Origin: a virus | Taxonomy: Duplodnaviria; Heunggongvirae; Uroviricota; Caudoviricetes | Reading direction: 5' to 3' (one strand) | IMG/VR virus record: IMGVR_UViG_2531839665_000023 | Length of the DNA stretch: 45,588 bases | Translations under genes and position numbers: made by a program | The notes under the pieces: model-generated | What the model was told of the DNA's origin: nothing | The model's database searches: none | The model's input: the letters and a program-made list of their open reading frames with translations, nothing else | Part shown: piece after piece, positions 9,962-33,839 of the stretch | Layout: each line of letters begins with the position of its first letter | How positions within the stretch are numbered: position 1 is the first letter of the stretch

Positions 9962-10450
9962 ATGAGTCTTTTGAATGAAGTTCAGAAATTCATTGAAGCC
10001 CATCCGGGGTGTACTTCCGGAGACATTGCGGATGCTTTTGCTGGTTACTCACGGCAGCGCGTTCTGCAGTCAGCAAGCAAGTTACGTCAGAGTGGGCGTG
10101 TGGCTCACCGTTGTGAAGGGGATACACGCAGACATTTCCCGCGCCTGACTGAGAGAGCACAGGAGCCGGAACCACAACCAGTTCGTGAAACCAGACCTGT
10201 GCGCAATTTCTATGTCGGCACTAACGATCCCCGTGTGATTTTGTGCCTGACCCGCCAGGCTGAAGAACTAGAGTCCAGGGGCTTATACCGTCGTGCTGCA
10301 ACGGTGTGGATGGCGGCATTCCGTGAAAGCCACTCCCAGCCAGAACGAAACAATTTTCTGGCGCGTCGTGAGCAGTGTTTACGGAAAAGCAGCAAGCGCG
10401 CTGTATCGGGTGATGAGTGGTATCTGTCAGGGAATTACGTGGGGGGTTAA
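9962..10450 (+). CDS. Putative regulator with PerC-like C-terminal region
   Basis: 162 aa; C-terminal segment LESRGLYRRAATVWMAAFRE resembles the PerC/Pch family as recalled. Confidence 0.45.
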   Translation: MSLLNEVQKFIEAHPGCTSGDIADAFAGYSRQRVLQSASKLRQSGRVAHRCEGDTRRHFPRLTERAQEPEPQPVRETRPVRNFYVGTNDPRVILCLTRQAEELESRGLYRRAATVWMAAFRESHSQPERNNFLARREQCLRKSSKRAVSGDEWYLSGNYVGG

Positions 10451-24117: not shown

Positions 24118-25625
24118 TGGCAATTCTTGATGATGTGATTGGCGTTTTTTCACCAGGATGGAAAGCGGCAAGGCTGCGTTCCCGTGCGGTGATCCAGGCT
24201 TATGAGGCCGTAAAAACGACGCGGACACACAAAGCCCGGCGGGAAAACCGAACTGCCGACCAGTTAAGCCAGTACGGGGCCGTGTCGTTACGTGAGCAGG
24301 CCCGTTACCTTGATAACAACCACGATCTGGTCATTGGTGTATTTGACAAGCTGGAAGAACGGGTGGTGGGGAAAAACGGGATTATTGTCGAGCCACATCC
24401 GGTATTACGCAATGGGGCCATTGCCCGTGATCTGGCAGCGGAGATACGCACCCGATGGAGTGAATGGTCTGTCAGTCCGGAAGTCACCGGGCAGTTTACC
24501 CGTCCGATGCTGGAACGTCTGATGTTGCGTACCTGGCTGCGCGATGGTGAGGTGTTTGCCCAGATGGTTTCCGGGCGCATAAACAGCCTGACGCCTTCTG
24601 CCGGTGTTCATTTCTGGCTGGAGGCGCTCGAGCCGGACTTTATTCCCATGACCAGTGATGAGAGCAACAGGCTGAATCAGGGCGTGTTTGTTGATGACTG
24701 GGGGCGTCCCGAAAAATATCTGGTGTATAAAAGCCGTCCCGTATCCGGACGGCAGATGGAAACCAAAGAAGTGGATGCAGAGCGAATGCTGCATCTTAAA
24801 TTTGTTCGCCGTCTGCACCAGATGCGCGGGACGTCTTTGTTGTCCGGTGTGCTGATCCGCCTCAGTGCCCTGAAAGAGTATGAAGATTCTGAGCTGACTG
24901 CAGCAAGGATCGCCGCTGCTCTGGGGATGTACATCCGGAAAGGCGACGGGCAGAGCTATGAACCGGATGGTAATGGCAGCAAGGATAAGGAACGCGAGCT
25001 TACCATTCAGCCAGGCATTATTTACGACGATCTGAAACCCGGCGAAGAAATCGGAATGGTGAAGTCGGATCGCCCCAATCCTAATCTTGAAACTTTTCGT
25101 AATGGTCAGTTGCGTGCCGTGGCGGCGGGCAGTCGTCTGAGTTTTTCCAGTACAGCGCGCAACTATAACGGCACTTACAGCGCCCAGCGTCAGGAGCTGG
25201 TTGAATCCACTGATGGCTACCTGATCCTGCAGGACTGGTTTATTGGTGCCGTCACCCGCCCGATGTATCGTGCCTGGCTGAAACAGGCTGTGGCATCCGG
25301 TGTTATCAGGCTACCCCGCGATCTTGATCGTTCTTCACTGTATACCGCGGTGTATTCCGGACCGGTGATGCCGTGGATTGACCCTGTTAAGGAGGCTGAG
25401 GCCTGGAAAATTCAGATTCGTGGTGGAGCGGCGACAGAATCAGACTGGGTACGTGCAGGTGGTCGTAATCCGGATGATGTCAAACGTCGGCGCAAGGCCG
25501 AAATTGATGAAAACCGCAAGCTGGATCTGGTATTTGATACCGATCCGGCCAGTGATAAAGGAGGCAGCAGTGCCGCAACGAAACGACAGGAGCCGCAGCA
25601 CACCGACGACCAGTCCGAAGAATAA
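24117..25625 (+). CDS. Portal protein
   Basis: 502 aa from the ATG overlapping W stop; position between W and protease/capsid gene. Confidence 0.8.
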   Translation: MAILDDVIGVFSPGWKAARLRSRAVIQAYEAVKTTRTHKARRENRTADQLSQYGAVSLREQARYLDNNHDLVIGVFDKLEERVVGKNGIIVEPHPVLRNGAIARDLAAEIRTRWSEWSVSPEVTGQFTRPMLERLMLRTWLRDGEVFAQMVSGRINSLTPSAGVHFWLEALEPDFIPMTSDESNRLNQGVFVDDWGRPEKYLVYKSRPVSGRQMETKEVDAERMLHLKFVRRLHQMRGTSLLSGVLIRLSALKEYEDSELTAARIAAALGMYIRKGDGQSYEPDGNGSKDKERELTIQPGIIYDDLKPGEEIGMVKSDRPNPNLETFRNGQLRAVAAGSRLSFSSTARNYNGTYSAQRQELVESTDGYLILQDWFIGAVTRPMYRAWLKQAVASGVIRLPRDLDRSSLYTAVYSGPVMPWIDPVKEAEAWKIQIRGGAATESDWVRAGGRNPDDVKRRRKAEIDENRKLDLVFDTDPASDKGGSSAATKRQEPQHTDDQSEE

Positions 25626-25638
25626 TTCCTGGTTCAGG

Positions 25639-27597
25639 ATGCAGGCAGGTCACCAGAGTGACGCGGATATTTATATTTATGACGAGATTGGTTTCTGGGG
25701 TGTTACGGCGAAGCAGTTTATCAGTGATCTGAATGCACTGGGCGATATCACCCACATTAATCTCCATATTAATTCACCGGGTGGCGATGTCTTTGAAGGC
25801 ATCGCCATTTTTAATGCACTGAAAACACATGGTGCGTCCATTACCGTTTATGTCGACGGTGTGGCGGCGTCAATGGCGTCGGTCATTGCGATGGTGGGAA
25901 ACCCGGTCATTATGCCGGAAAACTCCTTCATGATGATTCATAAACCATTTGGCTTTACGGGCGGTGATGCGGAGGACATGCGCACCTATGCCGACCTGCT
26001 CGATAAAGTTGAGGCGGTTCTGTTACCCGCTTATGCACAGAAAACCGGGAAAACCACCGATGAAATTGCTGCCATGCTGGCGGATGAGACCTGGATGTCC
26101 GGTGCCGAATGTCTGGCACAGGGATTTGCTGATCAGGTGACACCAGCCGTTAAGGCAATGGCATGTATTCAGTCAAAACGTACAGAGGAATTTAAAAAGA
26201 TGCCGGAATCCATTCGAAATATGATTACTCCGCCACGCAACAGTGCTCCACGCGTACAGGATGATGGACCTGCAGCCTCCCGGACGCCAGTGCAGGCAGC
26301 AGCACCCGTGGTGGATGAAAACAGCATCCGTGCGCAGGTCCTGGCAGAGCAAAAAGCGCGTGTAAACGGTATTAATGATCTGTTTGCCATGTTTGGTGGG
26401 CGTTATCAGTCGCTGCAGGCTCAGTGTCTTGCCGATCCTGAATGTTCGCTGGAGCAGGCCCGCGAAAAGCTGTTGAACGAGATGGGGCGCGAGTCCACGC
26501 CATCCAATAAAAATACCCCGGCTCATATTTATGCCGGTAACGGTAATTTTGTGGGGGACGGGATCCGCCAGGCGCTGATGGCGCGCGCCGGGTTTGAAAA
26601 AACCGAACGTGATAATGTCTACAACGGGATGACCCTGCGTGAATATGCCCGTATGTCACTGACTGAACGTGGTATTGGTGTTTCCAGTTATAACCCGATG
26701 CAGATGGTCGGTGCGGCGTTCACACACAGTACGTCTGACTTCGGTAATATTCTGCTGGATGTTGCGAACAAAGCCATTCTGCAGGGCTGGGAAGATGCCC
26801 CTGAAACCTATGAACAGTGGACGCGGAAAGGTCAGTTGTCTGATTTTAAAATTGCCCATCGTGTGGGTATGGGGGGCTTCAGTGCTCTGCGTCAGGTGCG
26901 TGAAGGGGCAGAATATAAATACGTCACCACCGGAGATAAACAGGCCACTATTGCACTGGCGACCTATGGCGAGCTGTTCAGTATCACCCGTCAGGCCATT
27001 ATCAATGATGATCTGAATATGCTGACCGATGTCCCGATGAAGCTGGGCCGTGCGGCGAAATCCACTATTGCCGATCTGGTTTATGCCATTCTGACGTCTA
27101 ACCCGAAAATCTCCACAGATAATGTAAGTCTGTTCGATAAAGCGAAACATGCAAACGTACTGGAGAGCGCGGCAATGGACGTGGCATCGCTGGATAAAGC
27201 CCGCCAGTTGATGCGCGTTCAGAAAGAGGGTGAGCGTCATCTGAATATTCGTCCTGCGTTCGTACTGGTACCGACGGCGATGGAGTCTGTTGCTAACCAG
27301 GTCATTCGCTCCTCAAGTGTCAAGGGGGCTGACATTAACGCCGGTATTATTAACCCGGTGAAAGATTTTGCGACCGTTATTGCAGAGCCTCGTCTTGATG
27401 ATAACAGCCAGACCACCTTCTACCTGGCTGCGTCCAAAGGCTCCGATACGATTGAAGTGGCTTATCTCAACGGTGTGGATACGCCATATATTGATCAGAT
27501 GGAGGGCTTCAGTGTGGATGGCGTGACAACGAAAGTACGTATTGACGCTGGTGTTGCGCCAGTTGATCACCGCGGCCTGGTGAAATGTACGGCGTAA
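25639..27597 (+). CDS. ClpP/S49-like head maturation protease fused to major capsid protein
   Basis: 652 aa; N-terminal protease region (HINSPGGDVFEG...SMAS), coiled middle, C-terminal capsid-like region. Confidence 0.8.
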   Translation: MQAGHQSDADIYIYDEIGFWGVTAKQFISDLNALGDITHINLHINSPGGDVFEGIAIFNALKTHGASITVYVDGVAASMASVIAMVGNPVIMPENSFMMIHKPFGFTGGDAEDMRTYADLLDKVEAVLLPAYAQKTGKTTDEIAAMLADETWMSGAECLAQGFADQVTPAVKAMACIQSKRTEEFKKMPESIRNMITPPRNSAPRVQDDGPAASRTPVQAAAPVVDENSIRAQVLAEQKARVNGINDLFAMFGGRYQSLQAQCLADPECSLEQAREKLLNEMGRESTPSNKNTPAHIYAGNGNFVGDGIRQALMARAGFEKTERDNVYNGMTLREYARMSLTERGIGVSSYNPMQMVGAAFTHSTSDFGNILLDVANKAILQGWEDAPETYEQWTRKGQLSDFKIAHRVGMGGFSALRQVREGAEYKYVTTGDKQATIALATYGELFSITRQAIINDDLNMLTDVPMKLGRAAKSTIADLVYAILTSNPKISTDNVSLFDKAKHANVLESAAMDVASLDKARQLMRVQKEGERHLNIRPAFVLVPTAMESVANQVIRSSSVKGADINAGIINPVKDFATVIAEPRLDDNSQTTFYLAASKGSDTIEVAYLNGVDTPYIDQMEGFSVDGVTTKVRIDAGVAPVDHRGLVKCTA

Positions 27598-29273: not shown

Positions 29274-30017
29274 ATGACCACACCAAATCCACTGGCAAAG
29301 ACGAAAGGTGCGGGGACGACGTTCTGGATGTATACCGGCAACGGCGATGCGTTTGCGAACCCTTTGTCGGACACTGACTGGCTGCGTCTTGCGATGGTGA
29401 AGGATCTGCAACCTGGCGAAATGACCGCTGATGCAGAAGATGACACTTATCTCGATGATGAAGATGCAGACTGGAAAACGACAACCCAGGGGCAGAAATC
29501 CGTCGGTGATACTTCGGCGACGCTGGCCTGGCGTCCGGGTGACAGCGGGCAGAAAAAACTGGTTCAGTTGTTCGACTCCGGTGAAGTCTGCGCGTTTCGT
29601 ATCAAATATCCCAACGGTACTGTTGATGTTTTCCGTGGCTGGCTGAGTTCACTGGGTAAAACCATTGCCTCAAAAGACGTGATGACCCGCACAGTGAAAA
29701 TCAGCGGTGTGGGGCGTCCGTATCTGGCAGAAGAAGGCACTGAAACCGTGGGCGTTACCGGGCTGACGGTGGCACCGGCATCTGCCAGTGTAAAAGTGGG
29801 AGCAACCACCACGCTGACCTTTACAGTAAAACCTGACGGAGCCAGTGACAAAGCGATCAGTGTGCATTCGACAGATCCACAGACTGCCACGGTGACCCTG
29901 AACGGGCTTGTGGCCACGGTGAAAGGCGTGAAGCAGGGCAGTGTCAGCATTGTGGGCATGACTTCTGACGGCGATTTTGTGGCAGTGGCTACGGTGGCTG
30001 TCAGCGCCGCAGGTTAA
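29274..30017 (+). CDS. V: Major tail protein V with C-terminal Ig-like domain
   Basis: 247 aa; AAGGAGG Shine-Dalgarno; C-terminal Big_2-like segment (VTGLTVAPASASVKVGATTTLTFTV). Confidence 0.85.
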   Translation: MTTPNPLAKTKGAGTTFWMYTGNGDAFANPLSDTDWLRLAMVKDLQPGEMTADAEDDTYLDDEDADWKTTTQGQKSVGDTSATLAWRPGDSGQKKLVQLFDSGEVCAFRIKYPNGTVDVFRGWLSSLGKTIASKDVMTRTVKISGVGRPYLAEEGTETVGVTGLTVAPASASVKVGATTTLTFTVKPDGASDKAISVHSTDPQTATVTLNGLVATVKGVKQGSVSIVGMTSDGDFVAVATVAVSAAG

Positions 30018-30077
30018 CAGGACGATACTCATCATTTGCCCCGATTATCCGGGGCTTTTTTGCAGGTGGAGAACATG

Positions 30078-30464
30078 ATGTTTCTGAAACAGGGCACGTT
30101 TAATTATGAAAAGCAGTCCGTGGTGCTCAGTGAGCTGTCCGGGCTGCAGAGAATTGAATATCTGGCGTTTGTTCAGCAGCGAACGGCAAAGTTTGATGCC
30201 GAAGAGGGAGAACTGCCGGAGGCTGAACGACAGATTGCTTTTCTGCGGATGGGGATGGATATCAATGCCTGGCTGGTTTCCCGCTCACTGTGGAATGCGG
30301 ATCAGTCTAAGGATGTAGAGACGCTTTGCGCATCCGTTATTACAACATGGTCGTATGATGCCCTGGGTGCGGGGGCGGAGATGGTTCTGTCGCTGAGCGG
30401 TATGGGGACCATTGATAATGCCGGGGATGATGAGCATGAGGCGCTGACGCCGGAAAAGTCCTGA
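30078..30464 (+). CDS. G: Tail assembly chaperone G
   Basis: MFLKQ...VVLSELSGLQRIEYLAF matches lambda G as recalled. Confidence 0.85.
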   Translation: MFLKQGTFNYEKQSVVLSELSGLQRIEYLAFVQQRTAKFDAEEGELPEAERQIAFLRMGMDINAWLVSRSLWNADQSKDVETLCASVITTWSYDALGAGAEMVLSLSGMGTIDNAGDDEHEALTPEKS

Positions 30465-30802
30465 CGCGGGAAATGCAGTTTGTCATGCGGCTTGCCCGGG
30501 AGTTCCGACGGGCAGACTGGCGGCGGATGCTGTCGGAAATGTCGGCCACTGAGCTTGGTGAGTGGGGCGATTATTTCCGGATGCAGAGCTTCAGTGATGT
30601 GTGGATGGATGCGCAGTTTGCCTCGCTGAAGGCATTGATCGTGAGAATGGTGTCCGGTAGCAGTGATGCTGCGGTGGCTGATTTCAGCCTTTTACCGGAA
30701 GAGAACGGGATACCGGAGCGAACGGACGAAGAACTGATGCATCTTGGGGAAGGTATTTCCGGAGGTGTGCGTTATGGACCAGATAGCCAACCTGGTCATT
30801 GA
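30078..30802 (+). CDS. T: Tail assembly chaperone GT, predicted -1 frameshift fusion
   Basis: T frame is open from 30440 and is -1 relative to G; candidate slip site GGAAAAG at 30452-30458. Confidence 0.55.
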
Positions 30803-33800
30803 TTTGGGGATTGATGCGGCAGAGTTTAAAAATGAAATTCCCCGTATCAAAAACCTTCTGAATGGTGCAGCCAGCGATGCAGAACGGTCTTCTGCCCGTA
30901 TGCAGCGTTTTATGGAGCGTCAGACTCAGGCCGCCCGGCAGACAATGCAGGCGGCTTCTTCGGCTGCAACAGCCGCATCCGTCCATGCGCAGACGGTGGA
31001 GAAGAGCGCACAGGCTCATGAACGCATGGCCCGCGAGGTGGAGCAAACCCGCCAGCGTATGGAGGCACTGAGCCAGAAAATGCGCGAGGAACAGGCGCAG
31101 GCCATGGCTCTGGCGGAGGCTCAGGATAAAGCGGCTGCCGCGTTTTATCGTCAGATTGACAGTGTGAAACAGGCCAGTGCGGGGCTGCAGGAATTACAGC
31201 GTATTCAGCAGCAGATCCGACAGGCCAGAAACAGTGGCGGGATTGGTCAGCAGGATTATCTGGCGCTGATTTCTGAGGTTACGGCGAAAACCCGTGTTCT
31301 TACGCAGGCTGAGGCAGAGGCTACCCGACAGAAAGTGGCGTTTATCCGTCAGCTTAAAGAGCAGGCAACCCGCCAGAATCTTTCTTCTTCTGAGTTGCTT
31401 CGTGCTAAGGCTGCCCAGCTGGGGGTAAGCAGTGCTGCAGAAGTGTATATCCGCAAAATGGAGCAGGCAGGAAAAGCCACGCATTCGCTGGGTCTGAAAA
31501 GTGCAGCGGCCCGCCAGGAGATAGGCGTTCTGATAGGTGAACTGGTTCGCGGCAATTTAGGTGCGCTGAGGGGATCCGGGATAACGCTGGCTAACCGTGC
31601 CGGATGGATAGACACACTGATGTCACCGAAAGGCATGATGCTGGGCGGGGTTATTGGCGGTATTGCCGCGGCCGTCTATGGTCTGGGTAAAGCCTGGTAT
31701 GATGGTCAGAAGGAGGGGGAAGAATTTAACCGCCAGTTGTCGCTGACGGGGCATTATGCCGGAGTCACTGCCGGGCAGCTGTGGACGCTCAGTCGTGCTA
31801 TTTCCGGGAATGGTATCACGCAACATGCTGCAGCCGGTGCGCTGGCTCAGGTGGTGGGGAGTGGCGCATTTCGTGGAAACGATATCGGTATGGTGGCGAG
31901 AGCTGCCGCACAGATGGAGCGATCGGTTGGCCAGTCGGTCAGCGATACCATAAGTCAGTTTAAGCGGCTGAAGGATGATCCTGTAAATGCCGCGAAGGCT
32001 CTGGACAATGAGCTGCATTTTCTTACTGCCACTCAGCTTGAGCAGATACGTGTCCTTGGGGATCAGGGACGGTCCAGTGATGCTGCACGGATAGCCATGT
32101 CTGCACTGGCAGAGGAAACCGGTCGGCGTACTGCGGATATTGATAATAACCTCAATGCGCTTGGCAGTACGCTGAAGTATCTGTCTGATTTGTGGAGTCG
32201 TTTCTGGGATGCGGCCATGAATATTGGTCGTGAAGACTCGCTGGATGAACAGATTGCCGCTTTACAGGAGAAAGTGTCGCGGGCGAAAAGACTCCCCTGG
32301 ACGGCATCATCTTCTCAGGTTGAATACGATCAGCAGCGTCTTAACGATCTTCAGGAGAAAAAACGCCAGAAGGATTTGCAGGATGCAAAAGAGCAGGCAG
32401 AGCGGAATTATCAGGAGCAACAGAAACGACGTAATGCTGAAAATGCTGCACTGAACCGGATGAATGAATCGGAAGCAGCACGACATCAGCGTGAAATTGC
32501 GCGTATTAATTCCATGCAGTACGCCGATCAGGCTGTCAGGGATGCAGCGATACAACGTGAAAATGAACGTTACGAGAAAGCCCTGGCATCCGGTAAGAAA
32601 AAAACACGCGAAACCCGTAATGATGAGGCCACCCGGTTATTGCTGCAGTACAGTCAGCAACAGGCACAGGTGGAAGGACAGATTGCTGCTGCAAGACAGT
32701 CAGCAGGCATTGCCACTGAAAAGATGACAGAAGCGCATAAACAGCTTCTGGCTCTGCAGCAGCGCATCAGCGATCTGGACGGGAAAAAACTGACGACAGA
32801 TGAAAAGAGTGTGCTGGCCCGTAAAGATGAACTGATTCAGGCACTGATGCTGCTGGATGTAAAACAGCAGGAGCTTCAGAAACAGACGGCACTCAACGAT
32901 CTGAAGAAAAAAACAATTCAGCTGACCAGTCAACTGGCTGAAGAAGAGCGCGCTCAGCGTCAGCAACATGACCTGGATATCGCCACGGTGGGTATGGGTG
33001 ATCAGCAGCGGCAGCGATATCAGGTACAACTGAGTCTTCGCCAGAAAAACCAGCAACAGCTGGAGCAGTTGAGGCGGGATAGTGAGCAGAAAGGGACATA
33101 TAACACGGATGACTACAGAAAGGCCGAGCAGGCGCTGACGGAGAGCCTGAACCGACAACTGAATGAGAATCGCCGTTACTGGCAACAGCTTGAAGTTGTG
33201 CAGGGTAACTGGAAAAACGGAGTCCTGCGTGCATTTCAGGATTTTACCGTGGATGCAGACAATACGGCAGGAACAGCAGAACAGGTGTTCTCGTCAGCCT
33301 TCAGCAACATGGGAAATGGCCTGGCAACTTTTGTCACTACCGGCAAACTCAACTTCAAATCCTTCACCTCTTCGGTGCTGTCAGATATGGCGAAAATCCT
33401 GGCGCAGGCAACCATGATGAAATCGATAAAAGGGATTGGCAGTGTACTGGGATTTGATCTCAGCAGCCTTTCCCTGAATGCCAATGGGGGGATTTATCAG
33501 TCTGCTGATTTGAGTCGTTACAGTGGCACGGTGGTTAACCGTCCGACGTTTTTTGCTTTTGCAAAAGGCGCGGGTGTGATGGGGGAAGCTGGACCTGAAG
33601 CCATTCTGCCACTGCGTCGTGGTGCTGACGGTAAGCTGGGGGTTGTGGCGGATATTGGTGGTTCAGGTATGGCGATGTTTGCCCCGCAGTACAACATCGA
33701 GATCAATAACGATGGCACGAACGGGCAGATAGGTCCGGCTGCCCTGAAGGTGGTTTATGACCTTGGGAAAAAAGCGGCAGCGGATTTTATGCAACAGCAG

Positions 33801-33839
33801 GCCCGTGATGGTGGTCGGTTAAGTGGAGCATATCGGTAA
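30774..33839 (+). CDS. H: Tail tape measure protein H
   Basis: 1021 aa from ATG with GGAGGT Shine-Dalgarno; long coiled-coil-rich protein with Gly-rich C-terminal region. Confidence 0.9.
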   Translation: MDQIANLVIDLGIDAAEFKNEIPRIKNLLNGAASDAERSSARMQRFMERQTQAARQTMQAASSAATAASVHAQTVEKSAQAHERMAREVEQTRQRMEALSQKMREEQAQAMALAEAQDKAAAAFYRQIDSVKQASAGLQELQRIQQQIRQARNSGGIGQQDYLALISEVTAKTRVLTQAEAEATRQKVAFIRQLKEQATRQNLSSSELLRAKAAQLGVSSAAEVYIRKMEQAGKATHSLGLKSAAARQEIGVLIGELVRGNLGALRGSGITLANRAGWIDTLMSPKGMMLGGVIGGIAAAVYGLGKAWYDGQKEGEEFNRQLSLTGHYAGVTAGQLWTLSRAISGNGITQHAAAGALAQVVGSGAFRGNDIGMVARAAAQMERSVGQSVSDTISQFKRLKDDPVNAAKALDNELHFLTATQLEQIRVLGDQGRSSDAARIAMSALAEETGRRTADIDNNLNALGSTLKYLSDLWSRFWDAAMNIGREDSLDEQIAALQEKVSRAKRLPWTASSSQVEYDQQRLNDLQEKKRQKDLQDAKEQAERNYQEQQKRRNAENAALNRMNESEAARHQREIARINSMQYADQAVRDAAIQRENERYEKALASGKKKTRETRNDEATRLLLQYSQQQAQVEGQIAAARQSAGIATEKMTEAHKQLLALQQRISDLDGKKLTTDEKSVLARKDELIQALMLLDVKQQELQKQTALNDLKKKTIQLTSQLAEEERAQRQQHDLDIATVGMGDQQRQRYQVQLSLRQKNQQQLEQLRRDSEQKGTYNTDDYRKAEQALTESLNRQLNENRRYWQQLEVVQGNWKNGVLRAFQDFTVDADNTAGTAEQVFSSAFSNMGNGLATFVTTGKLNFKSFTSSVLSDMAKILAQATMMKSIKGIGSVLGFDLSSLSLNANGGIYQSADLSRYSGTVVNRPTFFAFAKGAGVMGEAGPEAILPLRRGADGKLGVVADIGGSGMAMFAPQYNIEINNDGTNGQIGPAALKVVYDLGKKAAADFMQQQARDGGRLSGAYR

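Follow-up and report, generated by a model that had tools for sequence, protein, structure and literature searches.

A probable programmed -1 frameshift at a GGAAAAG heptamer in the G-T tail chaperone cassette of a lambda-like Escherichia coli prophage

Background

The tail assembly chaperone genes G and T of phage lambda are linked by a proven frameshift, and Levin and colleagues are said to have assigned this G/GT frameshift in 1993 to the heptamer G_GGA_AAG. The efficiency of the frameshift at this heptamer is about 4%, and the tRNA-thiolation pathway tunes the lambda ratio of G to GT (PMC3296357). A different heptamer is on record for phage N15, where a misc_feature at 10027..10033 in genes 14/15 (NC_001901) marks GGAAAAG as "slippery sequence for -1 translational frameshift". 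In the records of Gifsy-1 and Gifsy-2 (NC_010392, NC_010393), T is described as belonging to a frameshift hybrid and the slip site is left unmarked. Among annotated tail chaperones of phages, the slip sites include a "twofour" motif (PRFect, PMC10885494).

The heptamers of such junctions can be set against assays in E. coli, in which A_AAG shifts most readily of all tetramers and G_GGA_AAG ranks in the top three of the heptamers (PMC4066793). The bare tetramer A_AAG rises barely above background when it is not accompanied by a stimulator, and only heptamers of the form X_XXZ_ZZN were assayed, a set outside which G_GAA_AAG falls (Sharma et al., PMC4066793). The -1 signals of E. coli dnaX and IS911 combine X_XXA_AAG with a Shine-Dalgarno-like (SD-like) element on its 5' side and a hairpin on its 3' side. 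For dnaX, Larsen and colleagues reportedly gave in 1994 a stimulatory SD spacing of about 10-14 nt. A full-text literature search for GGAAAAG or GAA AAG together with frameshift and tail terms found no paper discussing the site treated here.

Here we compare with these systems the G-T junction in a stretch of 45,588 nucleotides (IMGVR_UViG_2531839665_000023), referred to in its entirety as the window and giving all coordinates below.

Results and Discussion

Gene content and order

The G gene (30078..30464, plus strand) encodes a tail assembly chaperone of 128 aa, residues 2-122 of which match Pfam PF06894 (Phage_TAC_2, 6e-40). A GGAG at 30068-71 lies 6 nt 5' of its ATG at 30078, with an alternative ATG at 30075, and PGAP places gpG at identical coordinates in the prophage of E. 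coli O145 RM9872, to which the region is 100% identical. The T segment is found in the -1 frame (30458..30802, plus strand), reads VLTREMQFVMRLAREF...GVRYGPDSQPGH* and matches PF06223 (Phage_tail_T, 5.1e-15).

The pair is flanked 5' by the major tail tube gene (29274..30017, plus strand), which is lambda V-like with a C-terminal Big_2 domain (Phage_TTP_12 1.2e-66, Big_2 1.7e-11) and the mEp460 counterpart of which is annotated as "major tail protein", and 3' by the lambda H-like tape measure gene (30774..33839, plus strand; TMP_2 1.2e-48, Tape_meas_lam_C 3.2e-22), the start of which overlaps the end of T. Homologues of Z and U are located further upstream of the tube gene. By Pfam assignment the order is the canonical V-G-T-H, with G and T between the tube and tape measure genes, and to judge from their sequences G and T are true homologues of lambda G and T.

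Between V and G, an intrinsic-terminator-like hairpin (GCCCCG-ATTATC-CGGGGC followed by T6; 30038..30061, plus strand) corresponds in position to rho-independent terminators annotated in mEp460, Ayreon and N15. The hairpin is a strong one and could keep the output of G, T and the tape measure gene below that of the tube protein. Elsewhere in the window, a single long open reading frame at 25378-27597 unites a ClpP-type protease domain (residues 95-255) and a phage major capsid domain (residues 441-736) and looks like a protease-capsid fusion gene.

Reading frames and the slippery heptamer

Codons of the G frame begin at positions divisible by 3, and the last of them read GCG CTG ACG CCG GAA AAG TCC TGA, with the stop on the plus strand at 30462..30464. 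The T frame is open from 30440 up to the TGA at 30800-02, which amounts to 120 codons. The two frames overlap over 22 nt (30440-30461), equal to 7 sense codons of G. Since the T frame is shut on its 5' side by a TGA (30437..30439, plus strand) and G ends at 30462-64, a productive shift is confined to 30440-30461. An earlier note on this DNA had described T as open only from 30440 and as -1 relative to G, which direct reading and translation bear out. It had also singled out GGAAAAG at 30452-30458 as the sole slippery candidate, in agreement with a hand check of the overlap: at no other pair of adjacent codons there could both tRNAs, or just the one in the A site, re-pair at -1 even in a near-cognate manner.

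As read in the G frame, this heptamer is G_GAA_AAG (30452..30458, plus strand), the same word that is annotated as slippery in N15, and the G stop follows one codon past it. The word as such is not rare: the two strands of the window together hold 13 copies, where 7.4 would be expected. Its chance occurrence within the overlap is about 1 in 800, based on 9 plus-strand copies in 45.6 kb and 6 in-frame placements, and such a coincidence is ruled out because the heptamer is conserved in relatives. Its first three bases are GGA rather than a one-base triplet, so that it does not match the canonical X_XXY_YYZ. The fit to X_XXY_YYZ, however, defines the classical motif and not the chaperone family, of which N15 is an accepted member with the same heptamer.

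Comparison with lambda, N15 and the Gifsy phages

The N15 junction has the heptamer in the same frame (GCG GAA AAG, here CCG GAA AAG) and shares with our locus the G and T families, the V-G-T-H order and a terminator-like hairpin after the tube gene. It differs in that N15 G runs 5 codons past the heptamer, as does that of lambda, whereas G stops here after one codon, and in that N15 is without an SD-like element 8-13 nt upstream. In phi80 and mEp043, which are relatives of N15, T is just about 42-46% identical to T here.

Gifsy-1 and Gifsy-2 have the same CCG GAA AAG TCC TGA, but their G and T have diverged; the DNA of Gifsy-1 is 69.6% identical to our region and the T of Gifsy-2 53% identical to T here. 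Phages cdtI, mEp460, Tritos and Ayreon match the region at 98-99% identity. Among 5426 complete E. coli genomes, 1834 (about one third) hold the junction region at no less than 90% identity.

Lambda itself, the T of which is about 39% identical to T here (tblastn), has its slip site at the homologous position, the same flanking gene families, the step from AAG to AAA by tRNA-Lys and a Gly-Lys-Val junction. Lambda G, however, is longer, at 140 aa against 128 aa here, where it stops one codon past the site, and base 3 of the heptamer is G in lambda and A here. It follows from the latter difference that the P-site tRNA would be tRNA-Glu with a central G·U pair at our locus, in place of the wobble re-pairing of tRNA-Gly in lambda.

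Conservation of the junction

Relatives were fetched via the G protein and not via the heptamer. Among the G proteins down to about 56% identity Pro-Glu-Lys is invariant, unlike the last ~20 residues of the G tail, which are hypervariable. At the DNA level, GGAAAAG occurs in the same register in all ten diverse loci, and in each of the 14 loci compared 56 nt separate the heptamer from GACTGGCG, which encodes the conserved Asp-Trp-Arg of T. Lambda, Serratia and two of three Symbiopectobacterium loci have GGGAAAG at the homologous position. The two words are separated by one transition, which changes Gly to Glu in the G frame and is silent in the T frame (GGG to GGA), and both yield a Gly-Lys-Val junction in the -1 frame. 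The conservation of the T-frame protein (GKVL, GKVF, GKAL) begins exactly at the heptamer. On this comparative reading, the heptamer is the positional homologue of the lambda slip site.

We also scanned IMG/VR with the first three bases of the heptamer left free (NNNAAAG plus T-domain anchors), and all 42 unique junctions had GGAAAAG. Two further scans contributed less: peptide patterns in genome contigs were too specific and gave just 11 loci, and the pattern GGRAAAG-N56-GACTGGCG in metagenomes returned mostly chance matches besides 12 real junctions.

The codons around the heptamer are constrained likewise. GAA is preceded by CCG, GCG, CTG, TTG or GTG, and thus always by a G-ending codon (25 of 25 non-redundant GGAAAAG junctions), and the Lys codon at the junctions is always AAG, the usage of which is only 26% in the window. 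In 20 of these 25 non-redundant junctions the 0-frame stop comes one codon past the heptamer. The position of the G stop itself seems conserved, and not merely an effect of the overlapping Val-Leu codons of T, because TGA, TAA and TAG are all used there. A stop one codon after the heptamer was likewise noted in most of the non-lambda relatives (L092, L093, L178, L207 and others).

Frequency of the heptamer variants

The frequency of the variants was approached through the G family, sampled with one representative per 50%-identity cluster (49 full-length proteins). At the protein level, which is a proxy for the heptamer, 38 of the 49 have EK at or near the C-terminus and four have the lambda-like GK; in five another residue precedes Lys within the last three residues (e.g., AK or KK), and the remaining two have no such motif.

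Among named phages, G_GAA_AAG stands at this position in cdtI, mEp460, Gifsy-1, Gifsy-2, phi80, mEp043, N15, a Klebsiella phage and a Providencia phage, and G_GGA_AAG in lambda, HK630 and an Stx2a phage. VT1-Sakai (L546) has A_AAA_AAG and a Vibrio phage (HY01, L552) C_CCA_AAA. In the lambda G relatives sampled, GGGAAAG thus appears to be the minority form and G_GAA_AAG the usual one.

The description of our site as non-canonical in the earlier note is therefore correct in the formal sense, as the heptamer departs from X_XXY_YYZ, and misleading if an oddity was meant, since the heptamer is annotated in N15 and is the commonest variant among the sampled relatives.

Some relatives deviate further. 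Two IMG/VR loci (L141, L143) have GCA_AAA at the homologous position with TAG directly after it. Among relatives in public assemblies (P0027, P0044 and P0001), deletions around the junction have fused G and T in frame to proteins of 215 and 212 aa, and one G is lengthened to 182 aa by an internal duplication; these cases may stem from defective prophages or assembly errors.

Mechanism of the shift and alternative explanations

Taken together, the Pfam families, the gene order, the positional homology and the conservation of the junction support the proposal of the earlier note that G and T are linked by a programmed -1 frameshift. We put the probability that the cassette is an ordinary programmed -1 frameshift for the G-T chaperone of a lambda-like E. 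coli prophage at roughly 90%.

In the proposed mechanism, most ribosomes translating G would stop at the TGA at 30462-64 and release the 128-aa chaperone, and a small fraction would shift back by one base while the P site holds tRNA-Glu paired with GAA (30453-55) and the A site holds tRNA-Lys paired with AAG (30456-58). The tRNA-Lys would re-pair from AAG to AAA (30455-57), and tRNA-Glu (anticodon UUC) from GAA to GGA (30452-54) with a G:C, a central G·U and an A:U pair. The shifted ribosomes would then read GTC CTG ACG... up to 30802. The predicted GT fusion joins 30078..30458 to 30458..30802 and would be 242 aa long, with ...HEALTPEK directly followed by VLTREMQ... at the junction. By homology to lambda, the fusion would bind the tape measure protein through its G part and recruit the tail tube protein through its T part.

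In E. coli, the classical example of highly efficient slippage in the A site is the move of tRNA-Lys from AAG to AAA. A tRNA reading GAA can re-pair with GGA if G·U is allowed (PRFect, PMC10885494). We consider the tandem slippage of tRNA-Glu and tRNA-Lys the likely mechanism.

The same product would result if tRNA-Lys alone slipped on A_AAG, either while in the A site or, once that site is empty, from the P site, which would render base 1 of the heptamer and tRNA-Glu irrelevant. Such a single-tRNA shift is in keeping with the rank of A_AAG as the best tetramer in E. coli (PMC4066793) and with the fact that the re-pairing from GAA to GGA is not cognate. It leaves unexplained, however, why each of the 25 non-redundant GGAAAAG junctions has G at base 1, whichever of five different codons comes before GAA, although G-ending codons make up just 28-75% of the usage for those preceding amino acids in the window. 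The invariably G-ending codon before GAA indicates that base 1 of the heptamer matters, which favours slippage of two tRNAs over that of tRNA-Lys alone. Moreover, GGGAAAG, AAAAAAG and CCCAAAA, that is, every other variant found at this position, are full two-tRNA heptamers. We therefore regard slippage of tRNA-Lys alone as unlikely.

Independent translation of T from the ATG at 30473 would make a frameshift unnecessary altogether. This ATG is the one chosen by gene callers, and PGAP and the mEp460 record annotate T accordingly. Five of ten diverse relatives, however, have CTG, ATC, CGG, CAA or CGT in place of the ATG, the sole purine-rich stretch (GGGAA) ends right against it, and the conservation of the T frame (GKVL) continues 5' of it up to the heptamer. 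Lambda T, too, is reportedly made only as the GT fusion, according to the work ascribed to Levin and colleagues in 1993. A free-standing T is thus very improbable. The T start picked by gene callers differs between relatives.

Slippage of RNA polymerase on the A run, which would produce a frame-shifted mRNA, can be dismissed with near certainty, as there is an A4 inside the heptamer but the run has only these 4 bases, the GGGAAAG homologues have just A3 at the same site, and the transcriptional slippage known so far depends on far longer homopolymers, of roughly 8-9 bases or more.

Possible stimulators

A stimulator for the tandem shift on G_GAA_AAG is plausible, because the bare A_AAG tetramer is barely above background without one. 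The candidate 5' stimulator is an SD-like GAGG (30438..30441, plus strand) 10 nt 5' of the heptamer. When 20 non-redundant GGAAAAG junctions were compared, 14 had an SD-like hexamer in the bin 8-13 nt upstream, and the other 6-nt bins hold 0-5. Synonymous recoding of the G tail leads to an expectation of 9.05 +/- 1.9 against the 14 seen, a modest enrichment (P = 0.007, a value not corrected for shared ancestry). SD-like forms such as GAGG, GGAGG and AAGGAGG were observed at the same offset in several relatives (L177, L178, L092, L200, L224 and others). No such element is present in the lambda, N15 and phi80 types, and about 30% of the relatives lack it. The upstream GAGG may stimulate the shift, and we treat this as a lead rather than a finding.

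On the 3' side, no stimulatory structure, be it a hairpin or a pseudoknot, was found 5-9 nt past the heptamer: the 82 nt that follow it have a folding z of -1.09, and single-sequence folds of 14 homologues share no common downstream helix. The RNAalifold consensus of 10 diverse loci reached -9.1 kcal/mol, to which covariation added next to nothing (-0.27), and revealed no conserved structure, and an Rfam scan of 30000-31000 returned nothing relevant. A UCCUG/CGGGA hairpin that directly abuts the heptamer was considered as a stimulator and rejected, being too close and not universal. Our locus resembles the signals of dnaX and IS911 in its A-site AAG and may do so in the SD-like element 10 nt 5'; it differs from them in that the search for a conserved structure on the 3' side was negative.

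For the large subclade in which G ends in PEKS and a stop, we tentatively suggest, at rather less than even odds, a three-part signal of an SD-like element about 10 nt 5', the weaker heptamer G_GAA_AAG and a 0-frame stop exactly one codon 3', unlike the stand-alone G_GGA_AAG of lambda. The G:GT ratio of these prophages, which are very common in E. coli, could then depend on tRNA thiolation even more than that of lambda. Both tRNA-Lys and tRNA-Glu belong to the Lys/Glu/Gln set, in which U34 is thiolated by the Tus/MnmA pathway. As both slipping tRNAs share 2-thiouridine-34, the G:GT ratio could lean more on host tRNA thiolation than it does in lambda; a dependence stronger than in lambda is nevertheless speculation.

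Implications for annotation and for the lambda-like tail chaperones

The G-T cassette with the N15-type heptamer is already known and, in spite of its formal position outside X_XXY_YYZ, recognised, as the N15 annotation, the Gifsy records and the PRFect motif attest. PGAP and several phage records, mEp460 among them, nevertheless list G and T as separate genes with T starting from the ATG at 30473. In the annotation, T should instead be joined to G at 30458 and not stand as a free gene from that ATG. A motif-based frameshift finder limited to X_XXY_YYZ would overlook most cassettes of this type. For the family as a whole, our comparison suggests a small correction to the textbook picture, in that GGGAAAG, the heptamer known from lambda, appears to be a minority form among the sampled relatives of lambda G.
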